Shown: piece after piece, positions 9,275-56,958 of the stretch | Layout of the letters: every line of letters starts with the position of its first letter | Position numbering within the stretch: position 1 is the stretch's first letter | Assembly: GCA_000934665.2 (NCBI GenBank) | Contig: KZ538632.1 | Span: forward strand, 1-57,429 | Length of the DNA stretch: 57,429 nt | From: Catajapyx aquilonaris | Taxonomy: Eukaryota | Direction of reading: 5' to 3' | Notes under the pieces: generated by a model | Databases searched by the model: none | What the model was told of the DNA's origin: nothing | The model's input: only the letters and a program-made list of their open reading frames with translations | Made by a program: the position numbers and the translations under genes

Positions 9275-10981
9275 CTAGGGGCAAGAATAATATTGATTTA
9301 TCACCCCGGTATAGGCTACACTCCAGATGGCCACAGGTTCCTGGCTATTAGGATCCGGTACGCTCTGGGTCTCGTCGCTGCCCATTTGTCCCACGGTCAG
9401 AAGAGGGACTGTCACATGCTGACCCTCAGTCCCTGTCACAGTGTAGCTCAACGGGATGTAATGTGGATCAGTGACCACTTGTTGACCAGTATTGGCCAAA
9501 GTCACCTCATGCCCCACTGGATTTCCATGCGTATGATCCAGTAGTGCGACATGAAGTGGTGCAACGGTAGAACCCGGTATCTCTTTGAGCTCGTTCTTGT
9601 TCAAATGTATTTTCATGTGCTCGTTCAGGTTTCCAGATTGACTGAAAGCCTTCGCACATACAGTGCACACGTATGGTCTTTCCCCCGTGTGTATTCGCAT
9701 ATGCTTCTTCAGGCTGTCCTGGTATCTGAAAGTGTTGCTGCACACTTCGCACTGGAATGGTCTCTCCCCTGTGTGCACTCGCTGGTGGATGTTCAGATGA
9801 GTCGAGGACACAAAGGTCTTTCGACACACCCGGCACTGGAAATTGCGGGCAGCCTTGTCCCCCTTGTGACACCTACGCTTGTGCTTGTTCAGAGCACTCT
9901 TGTTACTGAACTTCTTCTCGCACTCGTTGCAATCAAACGGTCGCTCCAACGTGTGCTTCTTCATATGCTGCCTCAACCCATCCGGTCTCACGAACGACTT
10001 GTCACACACCTGGCACTTATTTGGACGCTCGTTCGTGTGTGAACGACGATGGTAAATCAAGCTGCTGCGTCCGGCAAACCGCCTTTGACACACCTCACAC
10101 TCGAACGGTTTGTCCCCAGGTGTCGCATGCTTATGGCTTATGTGCATGTTCAGCTTCTCCTGGTTCGGATATGTGCGATTGCACTTGTCGCACATGAACG
10201 GCCTCTCCGCGCTGTGTATTTTCATATGCCTATTGAGATGATTGCTCTGAACGAACCCCTTACCACACACGCCGCATTGTTTCATCTTCTGCCCCAAATG
10301 CGTCCCTTCAGTATGAAGCTCCAGATTACGACGCGTAGAAAACGCCTTTCCGCACACCTTACACTTGTGTTGTTTCTCATGGGACTTCATGTGCGTCCAG
10401 AGTGCGTGCCGAGTAAAAGCCTTACCGCATACCTCACACACACTCTTCTTCTTGTTATCCAAATGTGTGCTGCGATGGTGATTCAGCCCAGTCTTACCCA
10501 CAAAACCCTTACCGCATATGTCACACTTAAACGGCTTGTCGCCAGTATGCGTACGTAAGTGCTCATCCAGGTACTCCTTACGTCCGTACTGCTTCCCGCA
10601 TACATCGCATGCGTGGTTCTTCTTTCCAGTATGTGCCAGCAAGTGTTTGTTCAATGAGCTTTTCGCAGTAAATGTTGCACCGCATATGTTGCATGCATAA
10701 GGCTTGATTCCGGTGTGTACTCTTATATGCAATTCTAGAGTGCTTGGCTTCGTAAATGCACGGCTGCAGTACATGCAGTACATAAACTTGCCTTCGGGAT
10801 GCACCTGCTTGACATGGTCTTGAAACTCTTTGCGTGGAAACTCTTCACCGCATGTGCTGCATTGCAATCGGATTCCTGGTCTCTTGTTCTTTGACTTTGA
10901 GGACTGCTTGGCGACATCTTGCTTATTGGCTGCATCGTTGTCATCGTCTGATGACAGTATGTAGTCAGGATCGTCGATATC
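9275..10981 (-). CDS. Last coding exon of the triple-BTB zinc-finger gene: acidic/basic linker, 15 C2H2 zinc fingers and a roughly 110-aa tail
   Basis: Acceptor ttcttacctttcattgtag| then phase-0 DIDDPDYILSSDDD..., continuing into the 530-aa ORF. I count 15 C-x2-C-x11/12-H-x3/4-H fingers, many with TGEKP-like linkers (TGIKPY, TGDKPF, TGERPF, TGERPY). Stop TAG at 9277-9275. Confidence 0.93.
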   Translation of the reverse strand, partial: DIDDPDYILSSDDDNDAANKQDVAKQSSKSKNKRPGIRLQCSTCGEEFPRKEFQDHVKQVHPEGKFMYCMYCSRAFTKPSTLELHIRVHTGIKPYACNICGATFTAKSSLNKHLLAHTGKKNHACDVCGKQYGRKEYLDEHLRTHTGDKPFKCDICGKGFVGKTGLNHHRSTHLDNKKKSVCEVCGKAFTRHALWTHMKSHEKQHKCKVCGKAFSTRRNLELHTEGTHLGQKMKQCGVCGKGFVQSNHLNRHMKIHSAERPFMCDKCNRTYPNQEKLNMHISHKHATPGDKPFECEVCQRRFAGRSSLIYHRRSHTNERPNKCQVCDKSFVRPDGLRQHMKKHTLERPFDCNECEKKFSNKSALNKHKRRCHKGDKAARNFQCRVCRKTFVSSTHLNIHQRVHTGERPFQCEVCSNTFRYQDSLKKHMRIHTGERPYVCTVCAKAFSQSGNLNEHMKIHLNKNELKEIPGSTVAPLHVALLDHTHGNPVGHEVTLANTGQQVVTDPHYIPLSYTVTGTEGQHVTVPLLTVGQMGSDETQSVPDPNSQEPVAIWSVAYTGVINQYYSCP

Positions 10982-11162
10982 CTACAATGAAAGGTAAGAA
11001 TTGTTATCATAATAGTGTGTATACCTACAATTTATCAGTTCAAATTATTTACAATGTTGCTTCTGCATAATCCACATGTTGGCAATAAAAGCACAGTGTA
11101 ACATCAGCAAGTTGACAATTTCGATAATCTAAACGTCAACAAACATGCCATACCATAAAAAA

Positions 11163-11253
11163 ACAGGTCATCCCCGCAATAATAATTATTGCGGGGATGA
11201 CCTGTCCCCATGGTGCGTTTCTTTAATTATTAAAGAAACGCACCATGGGGACA
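11163..11253. repeat. Two abutting perfect palindromes (20-bp and 25-bp arms)
   Basis: 11163-11182 is the reverse complement of 11186-11205; 11203-11227 is the reverse complement of 11229-11253. Confidence 0.95.
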
Positions 11254-12279
11254 CTCTATACGCTATAGAAAAACACCGCAAAAATATTTTGCGGTTCCCT
11301 CCAAAACGTTTTCATTTGCCCGAATTTTCTACGTGAACATACTATCACTTCATGCACAAAAACAGCGCGCGAACAAAATCACATGCATCATATCAAATAA
11401 ATCCCCCGTGTTCAGACGCGGCGCGATATTTTCTATCTCCCAACAATCAAAACAACGCAGCAATTTTCACGTTGGCCGCGCGTGAAAGCCGCCGTGATGG
11501 TATTATCGAGGTGTGAAGGGGGGTGCAGACCACCCAAAATGTCGATAAGAGACTGTGATTACAACGTTAAAAAAAAAAAAAAAAGACCAACGTAAAACCA
11601 GCATATTTTTCCAAACTTTTTACACAATTTTTTTTTTTTTTTTTTTTTTTGAAAAGTCACGTCTCGTGTAAACCACGTAACCCTAATTTGATCCATTACG
11701 CAATTCGCTAAAAATTTGGACTAGAATATTACAGGAGATGCCTTCGTGGTGTGGGCTGAAACTTCATGGTAAAAAAGGTGAATACGTGACACCTTCTTGA
11801 GCAGTCATGGTCAGCTGAACTCACGAGTCTACGCAGCAAATCGTCCAGCATGCACTTCGTTGCTCTACCCTCTTATGACGCTGTACATTTCCCGTGAGAA
11901 TTACTCTGAACAAGTTAGACCTTGTAATAGACTTGCCCACTGACTATGTGAAGTCGATAACCGCAAGGTGAAGCCAGGAAATGAACGAAATGTGGCAAAA
12001 AAAAATCGTGAACGTTTTATCTGTAGCTTACTAATTTGCTTCCGTCATGTCGTGCCGCTGAATTTTAGGAAGGAGCAGCCTACGCCATCTATTGCACGGA
12101 ACCAGTGGTGTACCAGACATTAAGTCAGCATTAAGTCTGAAAGTGAACAGTGTTGGACATTAATTCCGTCATACTGCTTGCGACATTTTTTGATGCGGCA
12201 GAAGTGCCAATCGAAGTCTGAGCCGTGTGAGTAAGAAGAAGTAGGCCTTGAGTGACGTCACCAGCTGGGGGGGGGGGGG

Positions 12280-12453
12280 NNNNNNNNNNNNNNNNNNNNN
12301 NNNNNNNNNNNNNNNNNNNNNNNNNNNNNNNNNNNNNNNNNNNNNNNNNNNNNNNNNNNNNNNNNNNNNNNNNNNNNNNNNNNNNNNNNNNNNNNNNNNN
12401 NNNNNNNNNNNNNNNNNNNNNNNNNNNNNNNNNNNNNNNNNNNNNNNNNNNNN
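12280..12453. other. Assembly gap (N run) between poly-G and poly-A
   Basis: Run of N characters. Confidence 0.99.
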
Positions 12454-13153
12454 AAAAAAAAAAAAAAAAGGCTCCAAATTTTTGGAGGAAGGGAGGATCC
12501 CCCGCCTCTCCCCATCTCCCCAGCAACCTCGTCAAGGAAGAGCAAGTTGCCAGAGACTATAGGCCTGGACCATAATAAAACGTGACCATAATTCCCGAAG
12601 GAGGGAGGGCCACAAAACGAGATGATCTGATCGTGAGAGGAAGTAGGTCACCGTTGACCTTTCGTTGGGTGGAGGGGAATGTTTGCAAAAAAAAAGAAAA
12701 AAAATGCGAATCTCCACTGTCAGGTCACGAAGCATCCAGATTGGATAGTTGCACACACTTCCACCTCCAGCAACCCTCGTTATTGCCTGGCAACTGACGG
12801 TCAGTGCCACCTGTCATCAGTCTCGCTACCAGACTTTTTAACGAGATCATGCTATAGGTATCACCAAGTGATAGACACGACTTGTTTTCTCGAGCTTAAA
12901 ACTGCGAAGGAATTTATGGCTTTCGACCACGATTTCAATTTGGATTTTGGCGGGTGATGTGGTATCGTTATTGGCTGACAAAAACCTGGCTTTCCCACCA
13001 AACGGCCAGTCAGCTTTTTGGAGGATGAGTTCCACTTAACAAAGCACGTTTGTGTCGCATATGAATGATGTACCGTCAATACAATGCGGTCCGATTAGTT
13101 TGAAGCTGGGCAAGTATAGGCCATACAATCGCCAGTACAAGTATTCGACACTA

Positions 13154-13290
13154 ACAAATATTCAGGCAAATAATTTTCAGAAAATAATATTCAGCCAATA
13201 ATATATTCTCACAAAATAATATTCAGCTAATAATTTTCACAAAATAATATTCACAAATACTCGTCCAAATAATTTACATATATTCAGCCA
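13154..13290 (+). repeat. Degenerate AT-rich tandem repeat, unit about 13-14 bp (AAATAATATTCAGC / AAATAATTTTCAC)
   Basis: About 8-9 recognisable units. Confidence 0.75.
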
Positions 13291-14893
13291 ATTTTGAGCT
13301 AATCATTTCCTAATTACACATTTGAAAAGAATGTGCCTGGAAAACCAAGTGTCTGGGTTTAGAACATCACCCGCCCCCGCCATCAATTTTCCGGGGGCGA
13401 AAACAGCTCCGGAGAAAGTACCTCCATCCCACACTCTTAATAAAGCGTCCTCCGGTAACTAGATTAGAGGGAGCAATTATTCAGGCGGACAACCCAGAAC
13501 GGTGCTGCAAAATGAAAGGTGTGCAAGCATTATATATTATGCATATGCACCTTTTGCTCTACTTTTATCGTTGTTATTATTATGGACCCCGCCGCCTTCT
13601 TTTTTTTTAGTGAGGGGGGTTTTAGGATCCACCATTTTCACTTAAATCAAATTATATGGTCTGCTTTCTAGCTAGCGACACCATATGGTATTATAGTCAG
13701 AAAATGCATCTTGGGAGTGATTGGGTATGCATTGGATGCTATCTTACAATACAACAATGCAAGCAAATGTCACATACTCCGCAGAAGTACCGGTTGCACC
13801 ACACACGTGCAGAGAACGCATTAAGAAGGTTCCGCTAAATGACTCGATGCAGTTCTACCATATCTCAAATTGCGTCACACCCTCCAGTTTTTCAGCATAC
13901 CACGTATGAGTACCGTTGGACTAAAACGGCACAAAAATCAACTCTGGTCACGCAATGAGCCAGCGTAAAATGGCCACTTCGGATATTTCCATACCGTTTT
14001 CTCTCCTCGTATACCTTCATCCCCGCCCTTCAAAATTGCCAAGCCGTTCAAAATAATTGGACCTTCAGTTGCTTCATAAATCACGTAGGCGTTATCATGT
14101 AGCTAGCCAGAGTGCCAGAAAATCGCTCTTAAAAACAGTGTATGTTGACCAGCCCAAATGGACCATACCGTTGCAGAAACTTGACCAAAATCTGATTACG
14201 CATCTGCAACTTTGCTGGCTTTTGTGTGCATAATCAAGCATTGACCTTTTAGAAGTAGGGGGAAGTGTAATTAAGTTGGTTCGTACTTTGTATCGTTATG
14301 CAGATGACCAATTTGTAACGTTTCAAGTTGACTGTAGGAATTACCCGTTTGCGTATACAGGACCCCAACTTCATTGCCAACTCGTTGACCTTGCATGCTA
14401 AGGATCATGTCGTGATGGTGAGATCACTCGGAAAGCACAAGCCGGTTGGAGGGAAACTGCAATGACATTGATTCGTCCAATCACATGTAGCATGTGTCCC
14501 AAAAAATTATGCCCCAGTGAATAATTTTATGCATGTTTTCATCATAGGTGAAGCTACAAATTGTTTATCACAACAATCAGTTCACAGTACAGGAAGCTGA
14601 AAGAGACGAGACGAATTTTCTGACATTTTTGCCCGATAGCGTTATAAGCTGACACGTGAAATACTTCACCGCCTCGACATGTCTTATCCTCAAAACCAAT
14701 CTTCCATGTCCATTTACCGTCTCCACTTCTCTTCAAGTAAGCATACCCAGTACAAGGTGGTCATCTGCCAAAATGCCAATTTTGATGTACAGTATGTAGG
14801 AAATAAGTTCTTCTGTACTATTGACGCGAAGACTTAATATTTATTGAATCTTCTTATAGCATTCATTTGATGATAAGTAACAGTCGATGTTAC

Positions 14894-15076
14894 CTCTCCT
14901 TCCGATTCCTGGTTACAGTCCTGGTTACAGTCAGAGTTCAGTTCCTCAAGAAGTGTGCGGTCCTCCACCACCACCATCTCCTCCTTCTGGCTGCCCCCCT
15001 TCTCATTGTCCTGGGCAGGAGCTGCGAGCTGCTGCCGTTGGGGGCGACTCCCTTCCTGATTCTTTTCATCCGCGAC
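14894..15076 (-). CDS. Middle coding exon (61 aa, Glu/Gln-rich linker VADEKNQEGSRPQ...ESEGE) of the triple-BTB zinc-finger gene
   Basis: Acceptor tgtgtgtttcag| and donor gag|gtaaca. 183 nt, phase 0-0, matching both flanking exons. Open and purine-rich, with a 12-nt in-frame duplication (DCNQ x2). Confidence 0.75.
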
Positions 15077-15355
15077 CTGAAACACACAAAGGAGCAGCCA
15101 TCATCATTTCGTGCTGCAAGGGGCCAGGGAGAAGGAAAAAGTCGTGCGTAGAAACCAGTCGTGTGGGCCATTTGACTCGGCGGGGGAGGGTATAGGAGGA
15201 GGCTGGAAAAAAATAATAAAAAGAATCGCAAGTCCTCCACCCATAAAACGGAGGAAGCACGTACATCAAACGAAACTACCCAAAACGACTCAAAATGGTC
15301 AGGCACCTTGAAATGTACAGTACAGTCGATATAATAAATGCGGCAGAATATGACA

Positions 15356-15529
15356 ATGCGGTAGAAGTGCAAATCGAAGTGATAGAGTGTGAGCCGTGCG
15401 AGTAAGAAGAGGTAGCCCTTGATTGACGTCACCGACTGGAGGACAATGGCGAAAAAGGCTTGCCCCCGGCCAGTGATGTCACACTTCTTACTCGCACGGC
15501 TCACGCTTCGATTTCCACGTCTGCCGCAT
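15356..15529. mobile_element. Small degenerate inverted-repeat element (MITE-like); a second partial copy lies at 12193-12268
   Basis: The left arm atgcggtagaagtgcaaatcgaag..tgagccgtgcgagtaagaag mirrors the right arm cttcttactcgcacggctca..cttcgatttccacgtctgccgcat. A similar sequence at 12193-12268 runs into the assembly gap. Confidence 0.6.
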
Positions 15530-18500
15530 CGGAAAATGTCGCTAGCAGTATGGCGGAATTAATGTTCAGCACTGTACCTGTAATGATGTGCGTTTTGTAA
15601 CATGCACCGTATCTAACAGAAAACATGCATTCATCACTAGGACCATAACACTTCCTGACAGGAAAATAACCCCATAAGTTGCCCATAAGGCAGTGACTTG
15701 CATTTCAAAAAAAAAATAGCCTAACACTATTCAGCAAATTTCATGAAATAACTCCTAGCATCATAGGTCAGTCACATTTTCAGACGACATAACGAGCCGA
15801 GACTTCTCAGGTTACAAATCGTTTCAAGCACCGGTAGCTGTGATTCGTCCATTTGCAAGCCTGGTTTCCTTCATAAAAAGAAATACGAAGAAGACGGAAT
15901 GGGAAAGAAAAGAAAAACCCTGTTTCGCGTCTGGTTTTCTGCGACCTGAATTTTCTTCTCGTGTGTTACAAGACGGCCGATGCGAATTCATTTTTTCTCT
16001 CTCGAAATGTAGACGAAAAAGAATTTTATTCTTCCGGTTTTCAATGCTCGGGTGCAAATTTGCTTGCACCATCGAACAAATGTGCAGTTACAAGAATCGT
16101 GCAACCGGCCTTATCTCACAGTTACGGACCTACAGAGAGAAAAATTAGGAATTAAAAACTTCACTGTTCGTGATTCCCCCGGCCATACATTGAAACTGAG
16201 CCTCTTTAATGTCTGCATCAAACTTTGCCAGCAAACCTAATTAGGATACACATGCGGAAAATATAGCAGATAACCAAGGCGTAAGGGGTTTCGTATTAAG
16301 AAAATGATTTATAGCGATGTTCATTAGTCACAGAGTTGAGTTCCACACTATAGCGCCTTCCAATGACCGAAAAATTTGTTCACACCACAGCAATGTTACT
16401 GGATCAAAAATGAGAAAAGGAAGTTGCAAAAAATCAGTTAACGATCATCACAGAATCAATTTTCCATAAAGTTATAGGTTTGTAACAGAATCACTATTTT
16501 ACTGACTCTTAATCCTTGTCATAAAGGGTTATGGCACTATTCGCGATAGTTAATCAAATAAAAAAATGTGACCTATCATTATCAAGTAATATCCAATGTG
16601 AAAGTAATTGCAAATCGAGTTTTTATTCAGCTCTTAATACATACTGCACATGGGTGTCAATCAATGTTTGTCCATGCGTCTGGGAGTACGTGATATGTTT
16701 CGATGTTATTTTTACTATTAAAGCCACAAAATCAGTCATCATTAACTGCACATTATAAAATGTGAATAGCGAGAAGAGTTCGTGAACTGAATTTGAAATA
16801 AATTAAATGCAGCCATGACGCTTCCACCTGCGTGTTTCAGCAAAGCCCAGCACTATAAAGTGGGACATTACAATACCGGTAGGCTTATTCTCGGAAAGAA
16901 ATAATAGTGATGACGTGTTTCGCTTAATTACAAGAGTAATGAATATCCTCATTTCATGAAATATTGCATGCTTGACCTACAAGATTTAAATCACTATATA
17001 TTTAAAGGTGTAGGATGTATCGTTTCAACGAAATGATTTAAAATCCTTCATGATCTATCCATTGAAGACTACTACTGTACTCTAATAATATATTTATGCC
17101 CATAAGTAATTATGAAACACGGTGTAATCAAAAATGGATAAAATGGCATCATATTAGCTAGTTGCATCCACAATAACTGTAATTATTATTTTGAGTAGAA
17201 TGCAATTTACTACTTAGCCCATTCTTCCAGTATAAGTATGCTTTCATTGCCTTAAAAGTCATAACTTAATCACCTCTAAACACGGCAATTACGCTCAGAT
17301 GGACAATGACATCTTCAAGCATGTCCGCGTGATCTTCCTGTTACTGCCAAGTTTCTCCACAAGTGGGAAGCTGGCCCAGCCGAGCAAAACAGCATATTGC
17401 CACAAACAAACCCACCCAATTAAGACACAACAAATGAGAATTGTCACTTTTGACAATCCAGATTACGCCGACCGAAATCGAAATTGCTCAAAACTAATCG
17501 CAGGGGGGGAAAAATTAGAAGTTACAATGCTACCGAAAGTGAGAAACAGTCACTAACCCTTCCATTCCTCGTAATTAGGCTCATCTTGTTCAAAAACTGG
17601 GCCAGAGAAAATAAGTGCATAAAAAATTCGAAAAAATAACTTTCTCGTGAATCCCTTTAAAAAAAATTCCGGTTTAGAAGTGTCAGTTAGTATTATGTAA
17701 TGACACCTGGTTCCAAACTAGGTGAAATTAGAGCAAGATCGGTCTACCGCTTTTATTGGTATTGTTCAACTCAATCCCAACTTTGGAGTTATCTTAACCT
17801 CAACCTTAATGAGCCGAATCAAATTTTAGCCAATAAATGAGTCACTTCAATTGCTAGCAATTGAGAGCACCGCAATTCTCTCTTTCGCAACACATAATTG
17901 CAAAAAAAAAAAGGTAATATGTCACACATCACACTGTTGCGATTTTCTACACACAACTTTTTTTTTTTTGGTATTTCGGATGCGTGGAATCGGTTGCAAA
18001 TATCAGGAAGACTAGACCCACCCTAAAACACATTTTCAAAACTGGATTTGTCGCAAGATTGGCAACTTTCTCCGCAACAGTATGCCTACTGTGAGTGGAA
18101 ATCTAAGGAATATTTATTCTTCTGAAGTCTCGCACTTTTATCCGGTATTGCGCATTCATACATGACATACTACATACTGTATATGCTATGCAACCAGCTA
18201 TAAACCTCATAAGCCATGACTGGTGACAATAAAGGCAATCAATCCGGTTCCATTGGGACAATTCATATATAGTTATAGTATATCATATGTATACAACTTG
18301 TAAGTTATATGACTATTATCATGAGTAATATTGGTAAGGTCATTTTTAATTATTCTATTTTAATGACTTATTAGCCAAAATTTCAAATAATTATCCTACT
18401 TATCTTTGGATGATTAAGCAAATCAGTCCAATCATGTCACACACTTTTTAGGTATATTTATCCAGCTTTATCAGCTAAGCTCCACACTGCTGTCATTTTG

Positions 18501-20440
18501 CCGCACTCTACAACACATAATGTTCTAATTCGCTTGCTGTACTATTTCTCAGTTTCCCTCCCTCGCAATATGACACCTAATTTTCACCGAAATAAATCAC
18601 ACCTTTCCGGCTCAACTGCCCTGAAAAAAAAGGCTACACCATACCATTCTCTCGCTCAAAAAAATTGCAAAAAAAAAAACCCTCCCGTTGGATCAGTATC
18701 GCCAAAATTCTCGCCACCACCTCGCGACAATAGGGGGGGTTCAAAATGCATAAAAAAATCTGGACACCCTGCTGGGGCTTTGCAACCATGAAACAATTCG
18801 CGACCAGCTCTTCAGCGCATCGGAAGAAATTACACACACCAGAGGAGACCATGAAAAGGACAACTCATCCTCCATGTTTGCCTGTGCGAATAATACCTGT
18901 CTACAAAAAAAAAAGTTGAAGAAAAAAAAAATCAGGTTGTGGGAGGGTTCATCACACATCCGGAGACAATACGGACACGCTAATGACGATTTCACCCTTC
19001 GAGTGTCACGTCCCATTGTTGCAACACACCCTTTTTTATATAGTCCCGAGGCTAATATGAGCCGGATTTGCACACTCAAAAAGGTCTCGTCAATAGTGCC
19101 CCATTGTTAATTCTTTTTTCACTTGAGATGAGCGAAATTGGGTTGAAAGTGATGCGTGATGTGTGCTTTATATTTTTCGCGAAACATCTTCTCTCTTTTC
19201 CTGTTTTTTGCACTTTTTTTGTACATGTTGAAGTAAGTGTTCCGACCGTTAGTTTGGTTGCTGGGGTCGGTAATTAAAATCGCTTCTCGGTGACAGGCGT
19301 CGATCCTTCCGGCAATATTAGTTCTGAACCTGATGCCATTTTTTTCCCCCATTGTAGCCGGAGATTGACAGTGATACGATAATTAATTAATTGCGGAAAC
19401 TAGAACCTGTGCAAAAATTGGGGTTGCGTCAATAAAAATTGCGAGATGTATTTATTATGGCTATGATGCTGCCAATAAAATGTAGCGGTTCAGGTTAGAG
19501 AATTAAGACTTCAAAACGTGTATTGCCCAAGGGGAATGAGAAGTTACTTTGTTTACTACAGGGGTCATTGTTACAAGACAGCTGGAGTCATCTCATTTCC
19601 TTATGAAAGAGGTAGCCCCTGCAAAAAAATCAACAGCTAAAATGTGACAAGAGTGCAAAAATTAATTATAAATACACGAATAAACATATGGACTAATATT
19701 TGCCAACCACCTTCAAACCCTGATAGCATCAACTCTACAAATCGGGCAAGTGCCTTAAAAGCCTGCAAATTAGCATTCCGAAGAATAATAGAAATCTTGT
19801 TGCCATAAGTCCATTTTTCACGAACCTTCTTCTGCAATCAACCATTATGCAAATTATGTGATTTTTTAAAAACTCCCACTTCCTTACACGCGCTCATTAA
19901 CGCATAACCATTATCGCGTGAAAAATCACGCTTAAATATCACGTTGTAACAATAACCCTCCTGAAAAATCTGACTTCCGCCCAAGACCCTTTAAAAAAAC
20001 GCACGTCATCAATCAATCAGCCTCCTAAATGATGACAAAGAGTTTGACCTGACCTTTCTTCTTCCCTGACCAGTCCTGTCCAGGAACAAAGCAAGGCAGG
20101 TCCTTTCATACATTTTCCTATCGCTACACACAAAAAAAGAACCCGGCAGTTGTTTACATGGGTGGGGTTTGAGATGGTAAGGTGCACAGTACCTATAACT
20201 ACCGCCGAAATCCGAGTCACGGATATCCATCCCCATGTGTCCGATGGGAAACACCTCTCAGGTCATTTTGTACAAAAAAAAAAAGGCGCGCCTAGTCACG
20301 TCGGCATCCCGGATAATCACCGCTGGGCAAAACGGTCGGGTTAATGTTCTTATACAAAACGCACTTCCCAAGATGGCCGTCGTCATGGGTACCCTTACTG
20401 GAAGTTGTACCATCAAGCAAAAATGGGGGGGGGGGGGGGG

Positions 20441-20534
20441 NNNNNNNNNNNNNNNNNNNNNNNNNNNNNNNNNNNNNNNNNNNNNNNNNNNNNNNNNNNN
20501 NNNNNNNNNNNNNNNNNNNNNNNNNNNNNNNNNN
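20441..20534. other. Assembly gap (N run) after poly-G
   Basis: Run of N characters. Confidence 0.99.
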
Positions 20535-20902
20535 GGACACTATCCTCTTGTCCTGTCCACTCCTGCCCTCTTCCTTGGGCTGTTTTGCGCGCGCCTTGGT
20601 CCCCCTTATTAGACGCAATTTATTTCGGGAGGGTCCAAACACGCCTCGAACCCCCCCCCCCTCCCCCCTTCCCCAACTACCCTTCCTCCCCATTCCCACC
20701 TTCCCTCTCCACCCCCCACCACATCGATCACGATCTTCCCCTGGCGCCCACTCATGAAGACGCAGCCTGAATTGCTCTAGGTTAGCCTTCCCAAGAGGTG
20801 GAAGGATTTGGGGATCAGGTGTGACTTACGTCAAGCTCTTCGATTTTCCTGTAACCTGTAACAGTACACACAAACATAAGTTTTAAAAAAAATAAAACTT
20901 AC

Positions 20903-22144
20903 GGTCTTTCTGCGTCCTCTTTTGGCCAATCTAGATGCGATGCTGTCGGTCTGCTCCATCAAACCATTCAAAGGTAGGGTTTGAAAGTCGACCCATTTGG
21001 TCATCTTCTCCTGGAAGGTGGACCATGACCCTGGATAGCTGGTACCACCGTAGTACATGTAGTCGACGCAGGATTTCAATTGGGCGAACTTCATATCGCT
21101 GACTACTACGCAGTATGGCGGTTTTAAGGAGTACTTGTTAAGTCCTCGTATGTACGGGCAGAATAGGTTGAGAACAGTGCTATGGACCAATATCGTGGTC
21201 CCTTCGCATAGGAGGGACAGGTCGGCAGTGGAAGAGCTCAGGTTGTTCAAAACGGTGGACACCTGTTTGTAAAATGGATCCTCGCTAACGGACGTTGTGA
21301 GTGTCAGAACCTGATGCTGATCAGTCGTGTCCACCTGATCTGGCACAGACAACCTCTGGCAAAGGTCGGTAAATCCGAGCATGACCGCAACGCTGTGCAC
21401 TTCTGTCATATCCTCTGCCGCAATGGTAGTGTGGCCACAGTACACAAACTCTAATGCATGTTGCAAGTGACGGCTGGATACATTGTCCATAACTATCCGA
21501 AGCGGCTCGCATCCCTCTCTGCTCATGCCGTGTAACAACGCACTGCATGTCGACACCACCGACAGGTGAGCCTGCACCATGTCATCCCGGGTCACAAACA
21601 CGACGTCGCAGTCTGCACGTGACCATAGCCGACAGATCAGCACGTCCTTGTGTCGTGTCCATCGTACCAGGCAGAACTGGTCATCCACATCGCATGTCTC
21701 TAGCTCCAGCATGAACCTGGCTCTGATCAGATGGCCTATCTGATACAAGGAGGTTAGGTCATGCCTCTTGACCTTGACTTCTCCCAGGTACAACAGGGTC
21801 ATAAGTGCGGCCAGGTCAAACCCATCACTCAGCATAGCCACAGTGCTATGACACTCCCGGCCAAGTAGCCAAAAGAGTTCGCTCCCAGCACTCACCACCT
21901 CATGATGGACCCTGAGCTGTTGCTTGTCACTAATCAGGGTCATGGTCGTGAACTTTGACCCGGTGTAAAAATTCCAGAGCTTGGTTCGTAGGTTGTAATA
22001 GTGTTGGTCCCAGGTGATCAGGCGTTGGTTGCGCCCAAGTGCTGCGGATTGCAGGCCTAGCACTTCGGCTATGGCTGTCGGATCCACGGTGCTGATGGGC
22101 TTTGCGGTCGACGAAACGACGTTGTCCAGTGTAACGTCGGCCAT
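20903..22144 (-). CDS. First coding exon (414 aa) with three tandem divergent tramtrack-like BTB/POZ domains followed by a basic NLS-like KRGRRK
   Basis: Acceptor ctcttgcag| just upstream (exon starts at 22157), ATG at 22144, donor acc|gtaagt at 20902 (phase 0). Three repeats match the BTB pattern (D/T-V-T-L...AH/VH-x-x-V-L-S...L-x-x-L-L-x-F/Y-x-Y-x-G) at about aa 41-146, 156-262 and 278-395. Repeat 2 starts QFCLVRW, like tramtrack-group FCLRW. Confidence 0.88.
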
Positions 22145-23799
22145 TCTGGCACGGCAGCTGCAAGAGTGTTACGACAGCGCATGAACATTTTGGTATAAGA
22201 CTCCGGAATTACAGAAACGGCAGGAATATTCGTCACAGGCTAATTGAGTAACATACATAAACTACACTGCAGGGCCAATAATTGTTTCAACATCCTCTTC
22301 TGAACTAAATTGCTGAGCCCCTCCCCCCCCCCCAATAATAATAATAATAAATTAATTAATAATATACTGTACACATTCCAACTCATAAGATTACATGGTG
22401 CTTCTCCAAACTATTTCTTTATGAGACAACCGCCAGTGGTTATACCCTTTCCCAAGAAAATAAAGCCAAAACCCGTGGAATAACTGGGTCCGAAGTTTGT
22501 AACGCGGTGAATCACAATTAAAAAGCTAATAACGTAAAGTTAGCTTTTAGCCACAAGCAGATCCTAACAATCCCTACCTTTGCCGATACCCGCTGTGTGC
22601 GGAAATTAACAACGTAGTCACTATTAAAGACATTAATTACTCCACGCGACTGGAGAGATTCCCTCTCTCTCATCCTCCAGGTAAGGCAAGACGAGAATGT
22701 CACATCTAGATCGTATATTTGGAATGTCAGAAAAATTTGGAACCAAACAATATGTAACATGGATCTGCATATAAGTCAATAACCGACATGAGTCTGCCAA
22801 TGTATAAACTGGGATGTAAAACACCGTTGACACGTGAATCAACAAAGAAGCGATCTATAGACACAGTGTCATGTTACATACTGTCAGTATTTGCATCCTC
22901 GGAGTCATAAAACGCGGTGTATGTCCTATAAAACGACACAATCATTTTTTTTGCACCAGTACACCTTTCACATCACCAAGTTATAGGTCATCTGATAAGG
23001 CTGAGCATACCCAACACAATGCAACTGCCATAACCGCTGAGCTATAGACGAAGTGTTGAAACATGCGGGAAAAACAAAAGCATTTCAATAACTACTCGTA
23101 AAGCAGACTCTATTCTAAAGAGGCGACAACTCTTAACAACTCAGCATATGACTCTAGGAGTCTAGGTCATTTGGTCATGATCGACCGTGGATAACACCGA
23201 ACCATTATGTAACGCATTTTTTTTTACATGGCCCATGGATATATGGCCCAATATGTCCCCAAAATTTATTATAGACATATGGGGGTATTTGCCCCACCCC
23301 ACTATACGTTGTCCTAATTCGCCCAAATTCGCATCTATGATTGCCCCTCGCACGCAGTGCCCTCTCTTGCCAACAGGGATCAAATTTTAAAAGCTCTGCA
23401 GGCAAGATCCCAATTTAATTTCACGAGAGGGGTGGGTGGGTGGTAGCAATGTGGGCGTGGGTGGGTGGGTGGGTTCGTGGGTCTACCTTCTACCCCCCTC
23501 TCTCTTCCACCACCCACTCCCCCTATTCCCGGACCCACCCCTCCATCTCTCTCACACCCACAGCCTCACCCCAATCAATAAACAGGACCACTGGCCCACG
23601 CCGGAACAAGGTCAGAGGAAGTGTTCCGTGCTTTTCGGGCTTCACCTTCATCGACTTGGACCGACTAGGGTACACCTACAAAATTTTGGGAGTACCCGGA
23701 TTTTCCAGTATGCTCTCAGTAGTATGGAAGTGGACCGCTATTATATTATATCGCCAACATATCAGTTATTAATAACACTAAATCAAAGTTCACGCTATT

Positions 23800-33722: not shown

Positions 33723-34348
33723 GTAAGTACAACAGTGCACAGTGTACGCCACGCGCGGTGGCCATATTGGATACGCTCAGTGTGGATACAAACCCATCCG
33801 CGCTTTACCGTCACGGAACGTCAGTCAACGTTATACCAACGGAAGAAGGGAGTGGAAATGATAATTGAATAGTCGGTGAAATTAGTTTGATCAAAATACA
33901 AGGGCTTCCACTCCCCGGTGCGTTTTTGGTCTGATTAGCTTCCATTTATTTTACGCAATTAACAAAAAATGCAGCCATCCGACCACACGAATGGATTATG
34001 AAAGCACCGGCGTAATTATCACTGAAGGGCTCCACTGACTTCCACCCGACGGTTTTTAAAGTGCAGCATCACAACCGTGGCAAATTACTGGGATTGGAGC
34101 AGATTTTTTTTGGTGTGTGTGTGTGCTGTACCCCCGGATTAAACGTAGCCTCGTACAAGCTTTTAAAAACCGTGTATGGTAAGGCCCGCCGAAAAATTTC
34201 ACCGAGTGTGTGAAAGCCAGGACTACAATATTGTGCGGAATAATACCATCTAGATGTAGTTAGCTCACACAAATTAATTTGTCAGCGCAAATGACCTTCC
34301 TTATGCAACGAATGATCGTGACATTATCATGCCCGACCTTTCCTTCAG

Positions 34349-34660
34349 CTTTGGCCGTGGCCGAGCCACCGGCTCACGACGTAAAGCCACGAGGAGCACC
34401 TTACGGCTACAGCAACGGCTACAACAGCGGATACGGCGGAGGAGACTTCGGCTACAGCGGAGGCCACGGAGGCTACGGCGGATATGGTAGCGGAAACAGC
34501 AAAACCTATGGCTATGGCAACTACAAGGGGGCCTATCCAGGGGGCTATAAGGGTTACAGCTCTGGGGGCGGATATTCCAACGGGAAAAGTTATGGGGGTT
34601 ACGGGGGTTATGGAGGTTACGGAAGCGGCTTTGGTGGCGGTCATGGTCATCACTTGCATG
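34349..34660 (+). CDS. Exon 2: Gly/Tyr/Ser-rich block (GGYGGYG repeats) ending GHGHHLH
   Basis: Acceptor ctttccttcag| and donor catg|gtgagt; 312 nt, phase 1-1. Confidence 0.88.
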
Positions 34661-36065
34661 GTGAGTAAGGGTCGCCTACTGTGATGTCCTACTGCCGTCC
34701 ATGTTCACTAACCCATGTTGTTATCCACATGTGTACACCAGATGCATGCAAAACACATATCCTATATACAGGGTGTCTCATAGCTTGCTTCCTAAACACA
34801 TTTATGTCCGTACTGTAGCCGCCTGCAAACCTTACACCTTGGAGTTTTTTCATCCCCATAAAACTTGGCAATTCTGAAGACCGGGGCCCTTTTTAATTCG
34901 GATTCATCGATTCGAAACCGTGTAGGAAAAGGTAATAACCTTTTCGCCCTTTGGGGGAGAAGCACGGCAGGTTTTGAAGAAATCGATGAAAGTAGGGGGG
35001 GGGGGGGGAGACCTCAAGTAGGTCATGGATTTTCAAAAAAAAAATTAAATCGCCCCCCCCTCCCGCCCCCCACTATTTAAATCACCCCCTTCCTATAGGC
35101 AAATCATGGCAAATGGGGCCAGGTGTCATCAACCCATCAATTACAACCGCACTTTAATGATTCTAACATACACACAAGCTTTTTTACATGTTGGCGCTTA
35201 TGTTGATCGCTTTTTGCTTATCACGATAGGGTCAAATTTTTTTTTTGAAACCCCTTTTGGTTAGCACGCATTTCCTTAATTTTCTCGTGCAAACTGGGTA
35301 AATGAACTGGAAATTTTGCCTGCATCCACTCCATTGATATTTCACGTCATTCACATAATTTGCTATTTTCAAATTTTTCACGTTCATTAAATGCAAATAT
35401 TTCTCGGTAATGGCACACAGTATCAGGTAGCAAGTAAATGAAGAGTTTAATCGTGTAACACGTACCATGCATTTGTACGGGGTAGAGTGCGTAAAAACCC
35501 TATTTGATCCAAACTAATGAACATACCGTAACGTAATTTATGGGATTAATCACTGCAATTAGGTAAGAACTGATTCACTGTTACTGAAGTGCTCGTAACA
35601 TGCTGTAGCATACCTTTATAATACTTATACCTAAATATTTTTTTTGTAGAACTCCATTAATTATTTTATGCGATGCACCTGATTATGTAAATTCAATGAT
35701 ATTTTGAGCTTCTCAGCTCCATTTCACTGATTTTGTTTTAATAGTGTACTGCTCCTCCTAATATTAAATTCCCGTCATAATCGGAGCAGCTTGCAAAGAG
35801 TAATTAGTGGAGGCTCACGACTGATTAAAAAACCAGCTCAGTTTACTCAAAACTGCATTGCACCACCCCCAAAACCACCACTTTAACAATCAAGCTGTGA
35901 CAACACCTTGTCACAACACTTTTTTTAAGACCCATCGTTAAACTAAGAATTGCACGAGAGAGTTAATGTCTTCTGCGCTTCCACAACCCAGCTTATAAAA
36001 CCTTCCCCCCCCAAAAAAAACTACTGTCTGAGATAGTTTGGCTGTAATTCTCGTACCACCTGCAG

Positions 36066-36449: not shown

Positions 36450-38609
36450 CCCCGAGGCGCGATGGCCACCTCACATGAGGTCGTATCCTCCACATCTGTA
36501 CTGTACATACGCCTTGAGCATGTGCATGTACCATTTTTAAATCAATTTGACCACATAATCCGACAGATTCACTAGCTACCGTGTACACACTGTACGCCCC
36601 TGTAATATACAGCATTACCAGCCGGCTTTTGTTGATTGCCGCAATACATCACTGACACAACAACAGACGCCTCCGAAAATCACGCATGACCACATTCCAA
36701 CTTCTCGCAAACCTGATTCACTACTCCTTATGAAGGCAAGGACTCATTTGCAGCGCACGTGCTCATGTCACTTTTGGACGGGACATTTACTTTCCAGATG
36801 TACCGTCCCCGTACATCCGACTCTAAGGGTCGCGGTAATGGTATTAAAATGCACGCTATTTACTATTTCCATTAACATTCCAGCAGCATATTATTTATTT
36901 GCTTAATCCAAGGAACGGGAGGCGTGACACAGACCAGTTAAAGGTCGTGCCATACGGTGCCATTGACCAACCTTGTAAACATATTTCCAAAGGAAATTGG
37001 ATTTTCATCCTCAGAGGTGGTCAACCCGCGGTGCTTTTCGGAGAAACAAAGTTACCCGCCAGTTAGTTATTACGCTCGCAATAGGTCAAACCATTACAAT
37101 TTTAACTGGAATTATACATTTTAATAGGAGTATAACAAAAAGGGCTGCCAATTCGAGAATGATTGTTACCGCCCATATTAATATGCAGTTAAGTGCTGAC
37201 CATTTCTGTCGCGCAAATGAACCGTCATACTCCTGTATAAAATATGTGAAAATGCAATTTCATCATTGGTTAATGAGAATAGTTCAAAATCATAGCTCGT
37301 TTCGGTGAGCAACCAATGACAGGAATAGATACGCGATATTTAACCCGGAAGCAAACACCGGCGGCGGGTTAAGAATAGGCTATCAGTAGCAGTTATAAAT
37401 AGCTGCTTTTAAAATACAATACCGACTGATTTGTCCAGACCGGAACTGATATGCTGCGCTCTGTTAAACCTAATATGACCGCATATTCCTGAGCTTCACT
37501 GAGGTTGATCATTGCGTGTGATATTTTATAAAAATTTAATGGACACACTTGTAACCATCTTTACTGGCATCATATCACACTTCCCGTCTCACTTTGCAAG
37601 TACTGCTCTCCCACGAATGCCTCAAGCTCCGTTTACCTGACAACAAGATAAGAACTAAGAAGCATTGTCTCAAGACACATTTCCCGCGGTATATAAAAAA
37701 AATACGCTCAACACTGGTTATTTTGAAATAACCACCAGGAAGGTGACAGGAGCATCCATATTTCTCACTCTCGCTAGAAGTCCGGAAGACTAAACAATGA
37801 CAGGAGAAATCCGCCAGAAAATGTCACCAACCTTTTGCCACCGGAACTGTCAAGGAGTCATAACTTAGCTAGACACCACAAATTATAGTGTCGTTTCCGG
37901 TACAATAATTCATCAGTTAATAATTCTTGAAACTTAAAATATTATTTCAAAATACCAAAAAATGCCCTTGAAATATATTCAATCCATTTGATACAAACAA
38001 CAGGTTCCATTGTGCAGGTGCACCCCTGTTCGAGTCACGAGTTCAATTACCATGTCAATAATGACTAGATCCTATTCAATTGCGATTGGCAAGAAAGTTG
38101 GGTGCGTGCGTATCAGTCTGGCCTTTTTTGGTTGCACCACGAAACGCACCTTGGTAGTAGGTCAATGGCAGTTGAGAGGCAGGTCATGGAGCCAAGGAAG
38201 CGGAAAGACCAGATCGGCCAGAATTCTAGCTAAGCAATGACATGATGCCCTCGGTTTTCTCCGCGGATTCCCACTTTTTTTTTCGCAAGTTCTTCCTACA
38301 CTTTCTCAACCGGTGGTTAGTAACCTTCAAGTTTGAAAGTTAAGTATGGTCAGCATTCTTGTGGACGAACCCAATTGTCCGACGCACTCTTGACTGGACC
38401 AATGTTGACGTCACGGTACCAACGTGTGACGTAACCCCACAATTTTGATGGTCCACTATACCGAAGGTGTTCTCACTCATGTGTCACATCCCTTTAAAAA
38501 TCAAGAGTTCATACAATGTAGTATGTGCGAGTGAGTACCCCTTCGACTATACTAACAGCTTGTCATATCAGAATTATCCACATGCGCTGACCCAAAATGT
38601 CGCCAACAG

Positions 38610-38998
38610 TCCCCACCGTCAGCATCCCAGTGGTGAGCAAGACCCTCGAAACGGTTCCCATTATCCAGAAGCACGTGGTTCCCGTGGTCAGCAAAGAAGT
38701 GGTTCCCATTATCGAGAAGCAGGTTCAGCCATACCTGACCAAGCACCTTGTTAGCTATCAGAAGGAGCTGGTGCCGTACCTGCAGAAGCATGTGGTACCA
38801 GTCTTGAGCAAGGAAGTGGTGCCAGTGGTGGAGAAGAATGTCCAGCCATTCCTGACCAAGCATTTGGTCAGCTACCAGAAGGAGCTGGTGCCATACCTCC
38901 AGAAGCACGTGGTGCCCTATGCCACCAAAGAGGTCGTACCGCACATTGAGAAGCACGCGGTGCCCATCATCACCAAGTCACACCCGGTCATTGCTAAG
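38610..38998 (+). CDS. Exon 4: Val/Pro/Lys/His-rich block with a 39-aa tandem repeat
   Basis: Acceptor ccaacag| with an upstream gctgac branch-like motif, and donor aag|gtcagt; phase 1-0. The 117-nt repeat units start at 38666, 38783 and 38900 and show synonymous-type differences. Confidence 0.85.
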
Positions 38999-39629
38999 GT
39001 CAGTGTTCAACCTGTGCCATTTCCACTACTTTCTCTATACGCTTGACCCACTCTAAGTCATAAGCGGTGTAATACTCCTCAAATGTCATGACATCATTGG
39101 TGTTACGAAGCCATCCCACATCATGCATATTTAACATAAAATCTAGTTACTAAACATGCTTAATATGTTCAGAACGTCACAAGCTGCTCCAGTTAGTACT
39201 GTGACGCAAACGAGCATACTTTCCTTTGTTTCAAGCCCACATGTGTGCAGATCTACTGACATGCCAATTTTCCGCATACAAAACTGGCACGTCATACTTC
39301 CATGCAATATGTGATGTGCATGCCATGCTGTCACCAATAATTGTGCAAAACTTGATGACTGTATCAGGGTCTAACTTGCTTGTTTCTGATGCTAGTAATA
39401 ATCTAGCCCAGCGTTCGACACTGGTAAATTCTGATAGGACACTTGATCCAATATAATTTGGGTATTCATAGAAACACTGACGGCAACAAATCTCATTGGT
39501 GAATGATTTTCTTTAATCCATCACTTTCTGTATAACAACCATGTTACTCTTCCGAAAAAAAAAAAAAATCAAACTCTATAGCCGTATTACTACAACGCTG
39601 ACGTTGGTACTCATGCTGTCCAACTACAG

Positions 39630-40040
39630 GCCGTCGCTCCCGTCGCATACGCCTCTCCCGTAAGTTACGCCGCTCCTGCCGTAAGCTACGCCGCAGCTCC
39701 AGCCTCTTACGGAAGCTACGCAGCGGCACCAGCAGCTTACGCAAGCTACGCAGCGGCACCAGCGTACGCCAGTTACGCCGCAGCCCCCGCTAGTTACGCC
39801 GCCGCCGCCCCTGCCGTAAGCTATGCCGCAGCTCCAGCAGCTTACGCAAGCTACGCAGCGGCACCAGCAGCTTATGCAAGCTACGCCGCGGCACCAGCCT
39901 ACGCCAGTTACGCCGCAGCTCCCGCCAGTTACGCTGCCGCAACGCCCGTTTACGCCAGTTACTCCGCCGCAGCGCCCGCCTACGCCAGTTACGCTGCTGC
40001 AGCACCCACTCACGGTCATTCATCAGGGCATCATCACTAA
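39630..40040 (+). CDS. Exon 5 (terminal): Ala/Tyr/Pro/Ser repeats (SYAAAPA, AYASYAAAP) and a C-terminal HGHSSGHHH*
   Basis: Acceptor tccaactacag|, phase 0, 137 codons to TAA at 40038-40040. AAP(A/V) motifs are typical of arthropod cuticular proteins. AATAAA at 40345-40350. The ORF track does not list this frame. Confidence 0.9.
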   Translation, partial: AVAPVAYASPVSYAAPAVSYAAAPASYGSYAAAPAAYASYAAAPAYASYAAAPASYAAAAPAVSYAAAPAAYASYAAAPAAYASYAAAPAYASYAAAPASYAAATPVYASYSAAAPAYASYAAAAPTHGHSSGHHH

Positions 40041-40442: not shown

Positions 40443-40691
40443 TTATTTATTGCCTGACGCCTCCTCCTTCTCCAGCAACTTGAGCAGCTCCTGCTGCTTC
40501 TTTTCCTTCAACTGTGAAATGAAAGTCTCAATCTCCTTCTTCCCTGTCTTCTCATCAGGAGGGTACATTTGCCGCTTCATCTTAACCACATAGTCCTCGA
40601 ACAGTTTCGGCTGGTTGAAAAGGTAGAACAGAGTCACCGGGAAGGTCATGTAGAGTGCCATTTTGCTCACTTCTAACTTCCAACCACCCAT
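40443..40691 (-). CDS. PET100: PET100 homolog, mitochondrial cytochrome c oxidase assembly factor (82 aa), CDS in a single exon
   Basis: MGGWKLEVSKMALYMTFPVTLFYLFNQPKLFEDYV matches the PET100 family N-terminus (LE-x-x-K/R-M-x-x-Y-x-x-FPV-x-x-F-x-x-x-NQ-x-x-x-FE), followed by a charged helical tail. An acceptor ttttcacatttcag| puts the exon start at 40766. Confidence 0.92.
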   Translation of the reverse strand: MGGWKLEVSKMALYMTFPVTLFYLFNQPKLFEDYVVKMKRQMYPPDEKTGKKEIETFISQLKEKKQQELLKLLEKEEASGNK

Positions 40692-42075
40692 GGTTAAGTC
40701 CCCGGTGTCACAAGCTATTGCTTCCCTAACTGATGTCCCACCAACCGATGGGGACCCAACAATAATCTGAAATGTGAAAAGGTAAATATACATTAACTCT
40801 CAACTGGGGAAGTATGTTTTCCGTATACTTTACACCAGCACGGACTGAACACTCAACACCTACGGCAGGGCCGAGAACATTAAATAAGAAATGTCATGCT
40901 AGGCAGTGCCCTCGGGTCAAAGTCTTGATTATCTGACAAAATGTCTCCTTGCAGATATACCGTTGCTTATGCTGCATTTTCTCGCATGAGAAACCACTCT
41001 GTACCTCGCAGGCATGATTGACATTGAATGCATTTGCTTCCAGCATATAACAAGTACCGTACATAAATGTCATCACAATATGCCTTACCTCATTTGAAAC
41101 ATTTTATTCACACTTATGGCTGCATAGTTAGTGAAAATGCCAATGCACTGTTATTTAAGGAAACTACAGTGCAATAATTATTATATCACTTTCATCAAAA
41201 GCCTCTAGACAGTGTGCATGCTATCAGATACATCAGAACTCTCACCTCCTGTTGTGAGACACAGGGGGATTTCCCACCTTGGTGTTAAAGTCATGACAAT
41301 AGAGCATGCATTAACGTGAGTTATAACAATAAAATGCTACCCAGGGACCATAAAACCTCATCCTTATTACACGGATTATTAAAAATGTAGCCTATTCTCA
41401 AAAGATATATGGTAAGTTGAACAAAATTTCATATATTCCGGGAACATGAATGATGCTACATTTTTTATGTTACCTACAGTACAGATAAGTCTAATATTGC
41501 AGGATTCTAGCTGACACAACAAAAATAGTCACGGAATTCTATGACTTGTTGTAAAAAGGTTTAGGTAAACTCAAGACAGTCATTTCAGCCATTCAATCTA
41601 TGTCAATGGCAAGGTGAGCGTACAGTACAATAGCGGCACCTATTGATATGGTGGTCAACAAACTGACACACAATAACCCTAGTTATACTTGTCTGACGTA
41701 ATCTCCTCTCCGCTAAGAAAAACCTGATTACAAGTGAAAATACATTCATGACGCTACCAGCAGTCCAAGACACTATTCTTAATGCACTATGCAACATAAG
41801 CATTACCATTTTGCGTATGTCAATACTCTCAAATATCCTGCTTTTTGTTCACCTTTACTCTTAATCACAACACTTGCTGCATAACATGCATGCAGTGCCA
41901 CAGTGTTGCAAATGAATGTGAACTTACCATAAATTATCCTTTATACGTTTACCTATTAATGCAAATTATGAGGTAACATCTTTCACTTCCTTACTAACAG
42001 TGCATGTGGCTGTCATAAGAGGGACAATGATCCCTCAATGTAAAAACTGATTTAAAAATCATTCATACCCTAGCA

Positions 42076-56953: not shown

Positions 56954-56958
56954 GACTA

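Follow-up and report, generated by a model that had tools for sequence, protein, structure and literature searches.

BTB-zinc-finger factors are thought to act as homodimers, and those of the tramtrack group as hexamers assembled from separate chains; how a BTB domain chooses its partner is an open problem. Can one natural chain carry several different BTB domains, and how would it arrange them? This question is raised by a locus on the minus strand of a 57,429-nucleotide stretch of Catajapyx aquilonaris DNA (assembly GCA_000934665.2, contig KZ538632.1, positions 1 to 57,429; referred to as the window). An earlier note, made from the letters of this stretch, had proposed a gene for three tandem BTB domains fused to 15 C2H2 zinc fingers. 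On balance we favor the reading that the locus is one gene of a conserved, unnamed family, whose protein pairs its first two BTB domains within the chain.

We scanned the predicted protein for domains, with coordinates given in Table 1. Pfam BTB (PF00651) matched exon 1 in three stretches (E 6.8e-22). All three thirds of the exon, when scanned singly, scored above the curated cut-off of 20.5 bits, which bears out the proposal of three BTB domains in residues 1–414. The three domains are only 17–24% identical to each other in local alignments, and Pfam scans of exon 1 gave neither a BACK nor a 3-box domain. In exon 3, Pfam zf-C2H2 (PF00096) matched 14 stretches (E 5.4e-72), and a pattern scan found 13 fingers with canonical spacing and two with 11-residue spacing, i.e., 15 fingers. 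The linker of 123 residues between both halves contains 27 Asp and Glu and 19 Lys and Arg residues, and the basic motif AKRGRRKT at the end of exon 1 is a possible nuclear localization signal. The protein thus has the N-terminal PF00651 domain and the C-terminal C2H2 array of BTB-zinc-finger (ZBTB/POK-type) factors. The usual form of these factors, however, has a single BTB per chain and dimerizes between chains, unlike the window protein with its three BTB domains per chain. Judged by its predicted sequence, the locus is best explained as an intact gene for a nuclear, sequence-specific DNA-binding factor of the BTB-zinc-finger kind.

Relatives were collected with an exhaustive HMMER scan of the BTB exon over 1.84 billion representatives. 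The scan gave 80 matches at E ≤ 1e-3, six of which spanned all three BTB domains in one stretch. These single-stretch alignments reached query residues 41–398, and the top matches were about 1000 residues long, with a protein from Anabrus (P0004) as the best match (2e-37). Full-length relatives comprise Anabrus simplex XP_068087144 (P0004, 1051 residues), Schistocerca gregaria LOC126279123 isoform X1 (1044 residues) and Bacillus rossius XP_063243431 (940 residues, auto-named 'ZBTB17-like'). Timema and Gryllus proteins are family members with both halves as well, and Artemia franciscana LOC136033130 (376 residues) has three BTB domains and no fingers. When nine relatives were analyzed with Pfam, three BTB stretches were found in six and two in three; six of the nine carried a C2H2 array, which followed the BTB domains in the same protein. 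About nine relatives in public proteomes hence share the architecture or its BTB module, and this is a conserved family, not a one-off. All named family members and nearby named matches that we looked up were arthropod proteins. Their database labels ('uncharacterized protein', 'ZBTB17-like', 'zinc finger protein 594-like', 'GDNF-inducible zinc finger protein 1-like', 'Protein glass', 'suppressor of hairy wing') are automatic or borrowed. Within this family the window gene is a new and rather divergent copy, and its single chain of three BTB domains plus fingers is a variant of the BTB-zinc-finger factor. The earlier note had recognized the architecture from no named gene: there is indeed no named or studied gene of this kind, but the architecture is shared by the unnamed family.

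Other searches added little to the family. A word-based protein search with the BTB exon against longer proteins found none. With the family alignment, it returned four family proteins only (Anabrus, two Timema, Gryllus), and the other 12 proteins matched fingers or a single BTB. With the finger exon against longer proteins, it returned 4262 matches at E ≤ 1e-40, giant poly-finger proteins of which none was informative. The ESM Atlas gave generic BTB clusters only. No family member from Holometabola was seen in the one exhaustive search; absence from this group, if true, would explain the missing Drosophila name. A full-text literature search found no paper on a three-BTB zinc-finger protein, although supplementary file 7 of PMC11426971, which holds the domains per protein, may list some.

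Do the BTB and finger halves belong to one gene? The first Met codon of exon 3 is at residue 67, inside finger 2 and behind the first CxxC at residue 41, and a stop codon lies directly upstream of the exon. With no ATG ahead of finger 1, the finger frame is therefore not translatable alone. We searched the whole window by tblastn with ten relatives. Exon 1 was matched by all ten (E 1.8e-41 to 4.1e-16) and exon 3 by all seven finger-bearing ones (E 2.3e-133 to 5.7e-50). Strand and order of the two exons were as expected for one gene, and no match elsewhere in the window was better than E 0.024. The full-length relatives of Anabrus, Schistocerca, Bacillus, Timema and Gryllus each matched both exons in order. 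For two Gryllus proteins (P0011 and P0098) homology begins at base 10981 itself, which therefore supports the exon 3 acceptor. Moreover, a relative of 666 residues with three BTB domains and eight fingers (P0012) is encoded on a contig of only 2359 bases, and its BTB and finger halves must therefore be nearly contiguous. With Pfam, the finger scan, the missing start of the finger exon and the tblastn results all in agreement with the proposed BTB-BTB-BTB and 15-finger gene, we conclude that the window gene is very probably a single gene of the three-BTB polyfinger family.

The exon structure was read from open reading frames (ORFs) and splice sites. The minus-strand stop-to-stop ORFs 20831..22168 (445 residues) and 9275..10981 (568 residues) are the longest two in the window. 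Exon 1 ends in ...AAG ACC/GTAAGT, with a perfect GTAAGT donor and 20903 as the final exon base. The acceptor of exon 2, tttgtgtgtttcag/GTC at 15076, is of the polypyrimidine-AG type, and its donor is GGAGAG/gtaaca after 14894. The exon 3 acceptor is ctttcattgtag/GAT at 10981, where the TAG at 10982-10984 in ...tcattgtag/ is acceptor AG and in-frame stop at once. All junctions are in phase 0 and 414, 61 and 568 residues add up to 1043. The ORFs, splice sites and phases fit the three-exon gene of about 1043 residues claimed before; the 61-residue middle exon is the part that stands on splice sites and an open frame. It had no Pfam match and was matched by none of the ten relatives in tblastn. 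We hence treat exon 2 as a candidate exon; splicing of exon 1 straight to exon 3 would keep the frame as well. The linkers of the family are not conserved.

Read-through of the first donor would add 23 residues before a stop, a product similar to the X2 and X3 isoforms of several Schistocerca species, which keep three BTB domains in 437–460 residues and have short alternative tails, beside the full form. BTB-only relatives also come from Dryococelus (402 residues), Artemia (376 residues) and an ENA entry (501 residues). A finger-less, BTB-only isoform may thus be made from the window gene. We also considered a locus of the Lola or mod(mdg4) type with alternative finger exons and rejected it, as no further C2H2 pattern was found anywhere in the window. 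A scan of six intronic ORFs for genes or transposons gave no Pfam match; those scanned in intron 1 were 15759-16148, 17236-17556 and 18741-19106 (wholly inside) and 14938-15558 (partly inside). Both assembly gaps, 12280-12453 and 20441-20534, are flanked by homopolymer runs (G/P-run translations on one side, and K/F runs also at the first gap), so that the introns are of uncertain length and content.

To date the triplication, we calculated a maximum-likelihood tree of 58 BTB domains, 37 from triple-BTB proteins (those of the window and 11 relatives, with P0073 as an outlier) and 21 single ones with the tramtrack-type (TTK) motif. Supports are given as ultrafast bootstrap / Shimodaira-Hasegawa-like approximate likelihood ratio test. 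The BTB2 copies formed one clade of 12 rows (100/99) and the BTB3 copies another one of 12 rows (99/98), and both clades include the window and Artemia copies. The triplication is therefore shown by the tree to be old and to predate the split between branchiopods and insects. P0073 (ENA, 388 residues) was rejected as a family member, its BTB domains falling outside the position-specific clades.

Several other arthropod gene models carry two to four tramtrack-type BTB domains per chain, namely Gryllus P0008, Notodromas P0061 and P0083, Centruroides P0013, Aedes albopictus P0017 and Orchesella P0020. Their BTB copies are near-identical where compared (Aedes P0017, and Centruroides P0013 by eye). 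These models may stem from assembly duplicates or from the fusion of tandem genes, and would then not be true multi-BTB proteins; they are a separate matter from the family described here.

The BTB domains of the window had been described as tramtrack-like. As set out in parts of Bonchuk et al. 2024 (PMC11426971), TTK-type BTBs occur in arthropods only, and their defining feature is an FxLRWN motif in strand one. Each chain of these factors has a single BTB and usually no more than one or two fingers, five in the case of MAMO, which agrees with the earlier statement that tramtrack-group members have few fingers and makes a long array unusual. These BTBs form hexamers of three dimers. The earlier note had ascribed the hexamer to the N-terminal FxLRWN strand, but in the same source this strand works only within the dimer, and parallel B3 strands make up the hexamer interface.

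In the window, none of the three BTB domains contains the strict motif F.L[RK]WN or its relaxed pattern. Remnants are QRLITWDQH in BTB1 and FCLVRWTRH in BTB2; BTB3 has none, and in the 11 family members aligned it likewise lacks a W-containing strand, P0073 apart. The 69 non-family matches, lola-like or bab-like arthropod proteins where looked up, had the strict TTK motif in 20 cases, the relaxed one in 22 and neither in 27. The tree placed the BTB2 clade among TTK rows with weak support (71/94), its outgroup consisting of TTK-motif singles only. Alignment with 21 TTK-motif BTBs gave hydrophobic B3 stretches STVAMLS, PLRIVMDNV and PYCVVVSDM in the window; in the TTK type, specific hydrophobic or aromatic residues of this strand (Y84 and V86 in CG6765) hold the hexamer. 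The window BTB exon had no sequence match to the CG6765 BTB (8rc6) at E ≤ 1, and a control with a bona fide TTK BTB found that this test discriminates poorly, as it matched 8rc6 at 2.4e-11 but a BCL6 fusion better. The description as tramtrack-like thus stands for the nearest single-BTB kin, which are mostly TTK-type, but not for the strict motif. In our reading, the window BTB domains would be derived from or sister to the tramtrack group and no longer carry its defining motif.

How might three BTB domains be arranged in one chain? An AlphaFold2 model of the 414 N-terminal residues was built from a 13-row family alignment. It had a mean predicted local distance difference test score (pLDDT) of 75.4 and a predicted template modeling score (pTM) of 0.72, with residues 1–35, 268–287 and 393–414 disordered. 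Within BTB1, pLDDT was mostly 85–95 and dropped to 64–70 over residues 91–110 approximately. The best PDB matches of the model were not single BTBs; they were the engineered fusions 4u2m and 4u2n (Foldseek E 2e-14, target template modeling score 0.80, 237 columns). According to a passage of PMC7271949, 4u2m is a 'forced' heterodimer of MIZ1 and BCL6, tethered to each other and joined through the homodimer interface. VIA-align superimposed 230 residues of the window model (range 27–271, i.e., BTB1 and BTB2) on 4u2m with Z 20.3 and a root-mean-square deviation (rmsd) of 3.5, compared with Z 14.2 for the best single BTB. The Artemia relative, only 18% identical to the window protein, gave a model (pLDDT 79.9, pTM 0.78) with the same match (Z 20.2, rmsd 2.8, 230 residues, range 6–239; best single BTB Z 11.8). 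Pairing of BTB1 with BTB2 within the chain hence recurs in both family models and is a stable prediction. Of the two structural ideas put forward earlier, a hexamer built from two chains or intramolecular pairing that leaves one BTB free, it is the latter that fits these models.

The best single-domain matches were ZBTB-type transcription-factor BTBs for the window model, and those of the Artemia model were led by KEAP1 and NS1-BP. The CG6765 hexamer 8rc6 was not among the best 50 VIA-align matches listed for either model, which excludes nothing. A two-copy complex prediction for residues 36–400 scored 0.23 against a mark of 0.32 and is evidence neither way, and a PDB profile search with the whole alignment gave mostly generic finger matches.

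We also compared the finger array within the family. Fingers 1–14 are colinear with those of Anabrus, Timema and Gryllus, and the colinear array contains the signature fingers FVG[RK]TGLNHH, TRHALWTH and FRYQDSL. Five long relatives match 12–14 of the 15 window fingers and the truncated P0012 matches eight; fingers 4–6 and 14 are near-identical across the family. Finger 15 (9605-9667, minus strand; CTVCAKAFSQSGNLNEHMKIH) is absent from all six relatives compared, either as a lineage-specific gain here or as a loss in Orthoptera and Phasmatodea. Exon 3 is 50% identical over 434 residues to the finger half of Anabrus P0004 and 43% over 550 residues to Schistocerca, and in Anabrus the finger half compares with 28–31% for the BTB half. 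At helix positions -1, 2, 3 and 6, 165 of 300 residues (55%) were identical to the window, compared with 278 of 834 (33%) at other non-structural finger positions. This suggests that the array reads a long conserved DNA target, because base-contact positions and the finger half are the better conserved parts. Behind the array, the window sequence HYIPLSYTVTGTEG aligns to the C-terminal family motif RRP[YF]SITIDGNL as a loose match only.

For the assembly of the protein we tentatively propose a mechanism that starts from the models. BTB1 and BTB2 are predicted to fold together within one chain as a canonical strand-swapped BTB dimer, and would thus do naturally what tethering achieves in the engineered Miz1-BCL6 dimer. 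With such pairing the usual homodimer interface would be consumed inside the chain, and BTB3 and exposed B3-type surfaces would be free for a second chain or for other BTB factors. The array of 14–15 fingers would read a long conserved site and place the fixed scaffold there, AKRGRRKT would serve nuclear import, and a finger-less isoform could modulate assembly. A further-reaching and rather doubtful version is that of an ancient pancrustacean architectural factor; the earlier note had likewise thought of a possible insulator or architectural protein. Here BTB1:BTB2 would be closed without partner exchange, and BTB3 would dimerize between chains or with tramtrack-type factors. Two chains would then amount to three dimers, a hexamer-like scaffold with two finger arrays bridging two long DNA sites.

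Several points weigh against the reading of one family gene with a paired BTB1:BTB2 module. Oligomeric state, DNA binding and nuclear localization are predictions, and that both halves lie in one polypeptide is deduced from splice sites, the missing start codon and relatives. The alignments behind both models are shallow (12–13 rows) and mostly common to both, and the AlphaFold training data probably held BTB dimers and 4u2m. The docking of BTB3 is no more than a hint taken from the high pTM. In the tree, the BTB1 copies have long branches and form no single clade. The comparison of finger positions covers six relatives of uneven completeness. Moreover, some conserved helix sets (GTGH in finger 5, THAT in finger 6) are atypical for base reading and may serve another purpose.

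What other arrangements could explain the locus? Each BTB might pair with the same BTB of a second chain, so that three inter-chain dimers pack via their B3 strands into a tramtrack-type ring. Such a two-chain pseudo-hexamer would follow the hexamers of three dimers reported for TTK-type BTBs in the sections of PMC11426971 used here; the nearest single-BTB relatives mostly carry the TTK motif (20 strict and 22 relaxed of 69), and a hydrophobic B3 stretch is kept in all three domains. We nevertheless regard it as unlikely, with BTB1 placed on BTB2 in-chain by both monomer models (Z about 20 to the tethered dimer), the strict FxLRWN in no BTB, the W-containing strand of BTB3 lost in 11 aligned members and the mutual identity of the window BTBs at only 17–24%. 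A closed monomeric module, in which all three BTB domains pack within the chain, the protein does not self-associate and co-repressors or other BTB factors merely dock on it, is unlikely to the same degree. The pTM values of 0.72 and 0.78 are high for a three-domain chain with one freely mobile domain, and the conserved W-[IL]-D-F..L-P extension that follows BTB3 could fold back onto the module; BTB3 in the models, however, keeps the elements of a dimerizing BTB (a beta-1-like strand, alpha-1 and B4).

It is very unlikely that the two halves are separate genes, or that a finger-less three-BTB protein is the main product and the 1043-residue fusion an artifact of exon joining. The BTB-only relatives (Dryococelus, Artemia, the ENA protein of 501 residues, Schistocerca X2/X3) would fit this, as would the long introns of 5.8 and 3.9 kb, each with an assembly gap. 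Yet the finger ORF lacks its own start, its first Met being inside finger 2, the match to the linkers of full-length relatives sets in with the first base downstream of the acceptor, and six relatives have both halves in one protein, with compatible frames here. We would hardly expect a Cullin-3 substrate adaptor whose BTB module directs ubiquitination and not transcription or chromatin architecture. Many BTB proteins bind Cul3 and Kelch-type BTBs were among the weaker structural matches, but neither BACK nor 3-box was found in the Pfam scans, the window model was closest to ZBTB-type domains, though KEAP1 and NS1-BP led for Artemia, and a 15-finger array points to DNA binding. Among these explanations, we retain intrachain pairing of BTB1 and BTB2 in a single family gene.

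Table 1. Features of the three-BTB zinc-finger gene in the window.
Feature	Position	Strand	Description
Coding exon 1	20903..22144	-	414 residues; ATG at 22144, three BTB domains, start of linker; GTAAGT donor directly after 20903
BTB1	21695..22027	-	approximately residues 40–150; 23.1 bits; degenerate beta-1 remnant QRLITWDQH
BTB2	21341..21694	-	approximately residues 151–268; 41.4 bits; remnant FCLVRWTRH; best-conserved BTB of the three
BTB3	20969..21283	-	approximately residues 288–392; 22.3 bits; without W-containing beta-1 motif; ends in family signature W-V-D-F..L-P
Basic motif AKRGRRKT	20903..20926	-	end of exon 1; read from sequence
Intron 1	15077..20902	-	GT...AG ends; 5.8 kb; N gap 20441-20534 (94 N)
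Candidate coding exon 2	14894..15076	-	183 bases, 61 residues; acidic Gln-rich linker; splice consensus and open frame, phase 0
Intron 2	10982..14893	-	GT...AG ends; 3.9 kb; N gap 12280-12453 (174 N)
Last coding exon 3	9275..10981	-	568 residues and stop; acidic linker, 15 C2H2 fingers, C-terminal tail
Array of 15 C2H2 zinc fingers	9605..10861	-	exon 3 residues 41–459; pattern scans and Pfam zf-C2H2

Elsewhere in the window, an ORF at 40443-40799 (minus strand) gave a full-length match to Pfam Pet100 (PF09803; E 5.7e-29, profile positions 1–71 of 73) and is probably the gene for the cytochrome c oxidase assembly factor PET100. Two low-complexity ORFs at 38591-39046 and 39582-40040 (both plus strand) matched no Pfam family above cut-off. 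One is built from VVP.(V/I)(S/E)K...LVSYQKELVPYLQKH repeats; AAPA(Y)ASY repeats followed by a His-rich tail make up the second. We take both to resemble structural (cuticle-like) proteins. A Gly/Tyr-rich ORF with GYGGYG repeats at 34264-34668 (plus strand), without Pfam match, may be another structural protein gene. Near the window end, an ORF at 56653-56955 (minus strand) contains a run of about 25 Asn codons, a simple repeat.

Cells reportedly police BTB heterodimers, according to work cited in the introduction of PMC11426971. If the proposed pairing is true, evolution would have answered the question of partner choice with a natural chain that hard-wires two different BTB domains next to a third, and the protein would be a ready-made system to study the stacking of BTB dimers into larger assemblies. 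In locusts and crickets, which are amenable to RNA interference, the function of family members could be tested directly. The family deserves one name that replaces its borrowed labels.

The window protein resembles its unnamed family most closely, with three colinear BTB domains, a linker, a colinear finger array and position-specific BTB2 and BTB3 clades. It differs in that its BTB half is only 18–28% identical to those of its relatives, its finger 15 is absent from the six relatives compared and its C-terminal tail is a loose match. With vertebrate ZBTB17/Miz-1 it shares the order of a BTB followed by a long C2H2 array, and for BTB2 the top sequence and profile matches include the BTB of Miz-1. 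Miz-1 has about 13 fingers. In contrast to the window protein, vertebrate ZBTB factors have a single BTB, and PDB matches to the window fingers are generic (ZNF568, CTCF). RhoBTB, BTB-ankyrin proteins and S. pombe Btb3p also carry several BTBs in a chain; these have two BTBs of other subtypes, no zinc fingers and are linked to Cul3 ligases, as far as covered by the part of Stogios et al. 2005 (PMC1257465) consulted. The TTK-type proteins Lola, Ttk, Bab, GAF, Mod(mdg4) and CG6765 are likewise arthropod BTB factors, and 42 of the 69 nearest single-BTB relatives have a TTK motif. Theirs is, however, one BTB with a strict FxLRWN and usually one or two fingers, according to the same parts of PMC11426971, whereas the window protein has three BTB domains, no strict motif and 15 fingers. 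The closest structural counterparts are the engineered Miz1-BCL6 (4u2m) and Miz1-NAC1 (4u2n) fusions (Stead & Wright 2014, as cited in the portion of PMC7271949 used here), in which one chain holds two different BTBs as a canonical dimer. These are laboratory constructs of vertebrate domains, 14–19% identical to the models, whereas the window protein is natural, carries a third BTB and is predicted to pair the first two in the same way.

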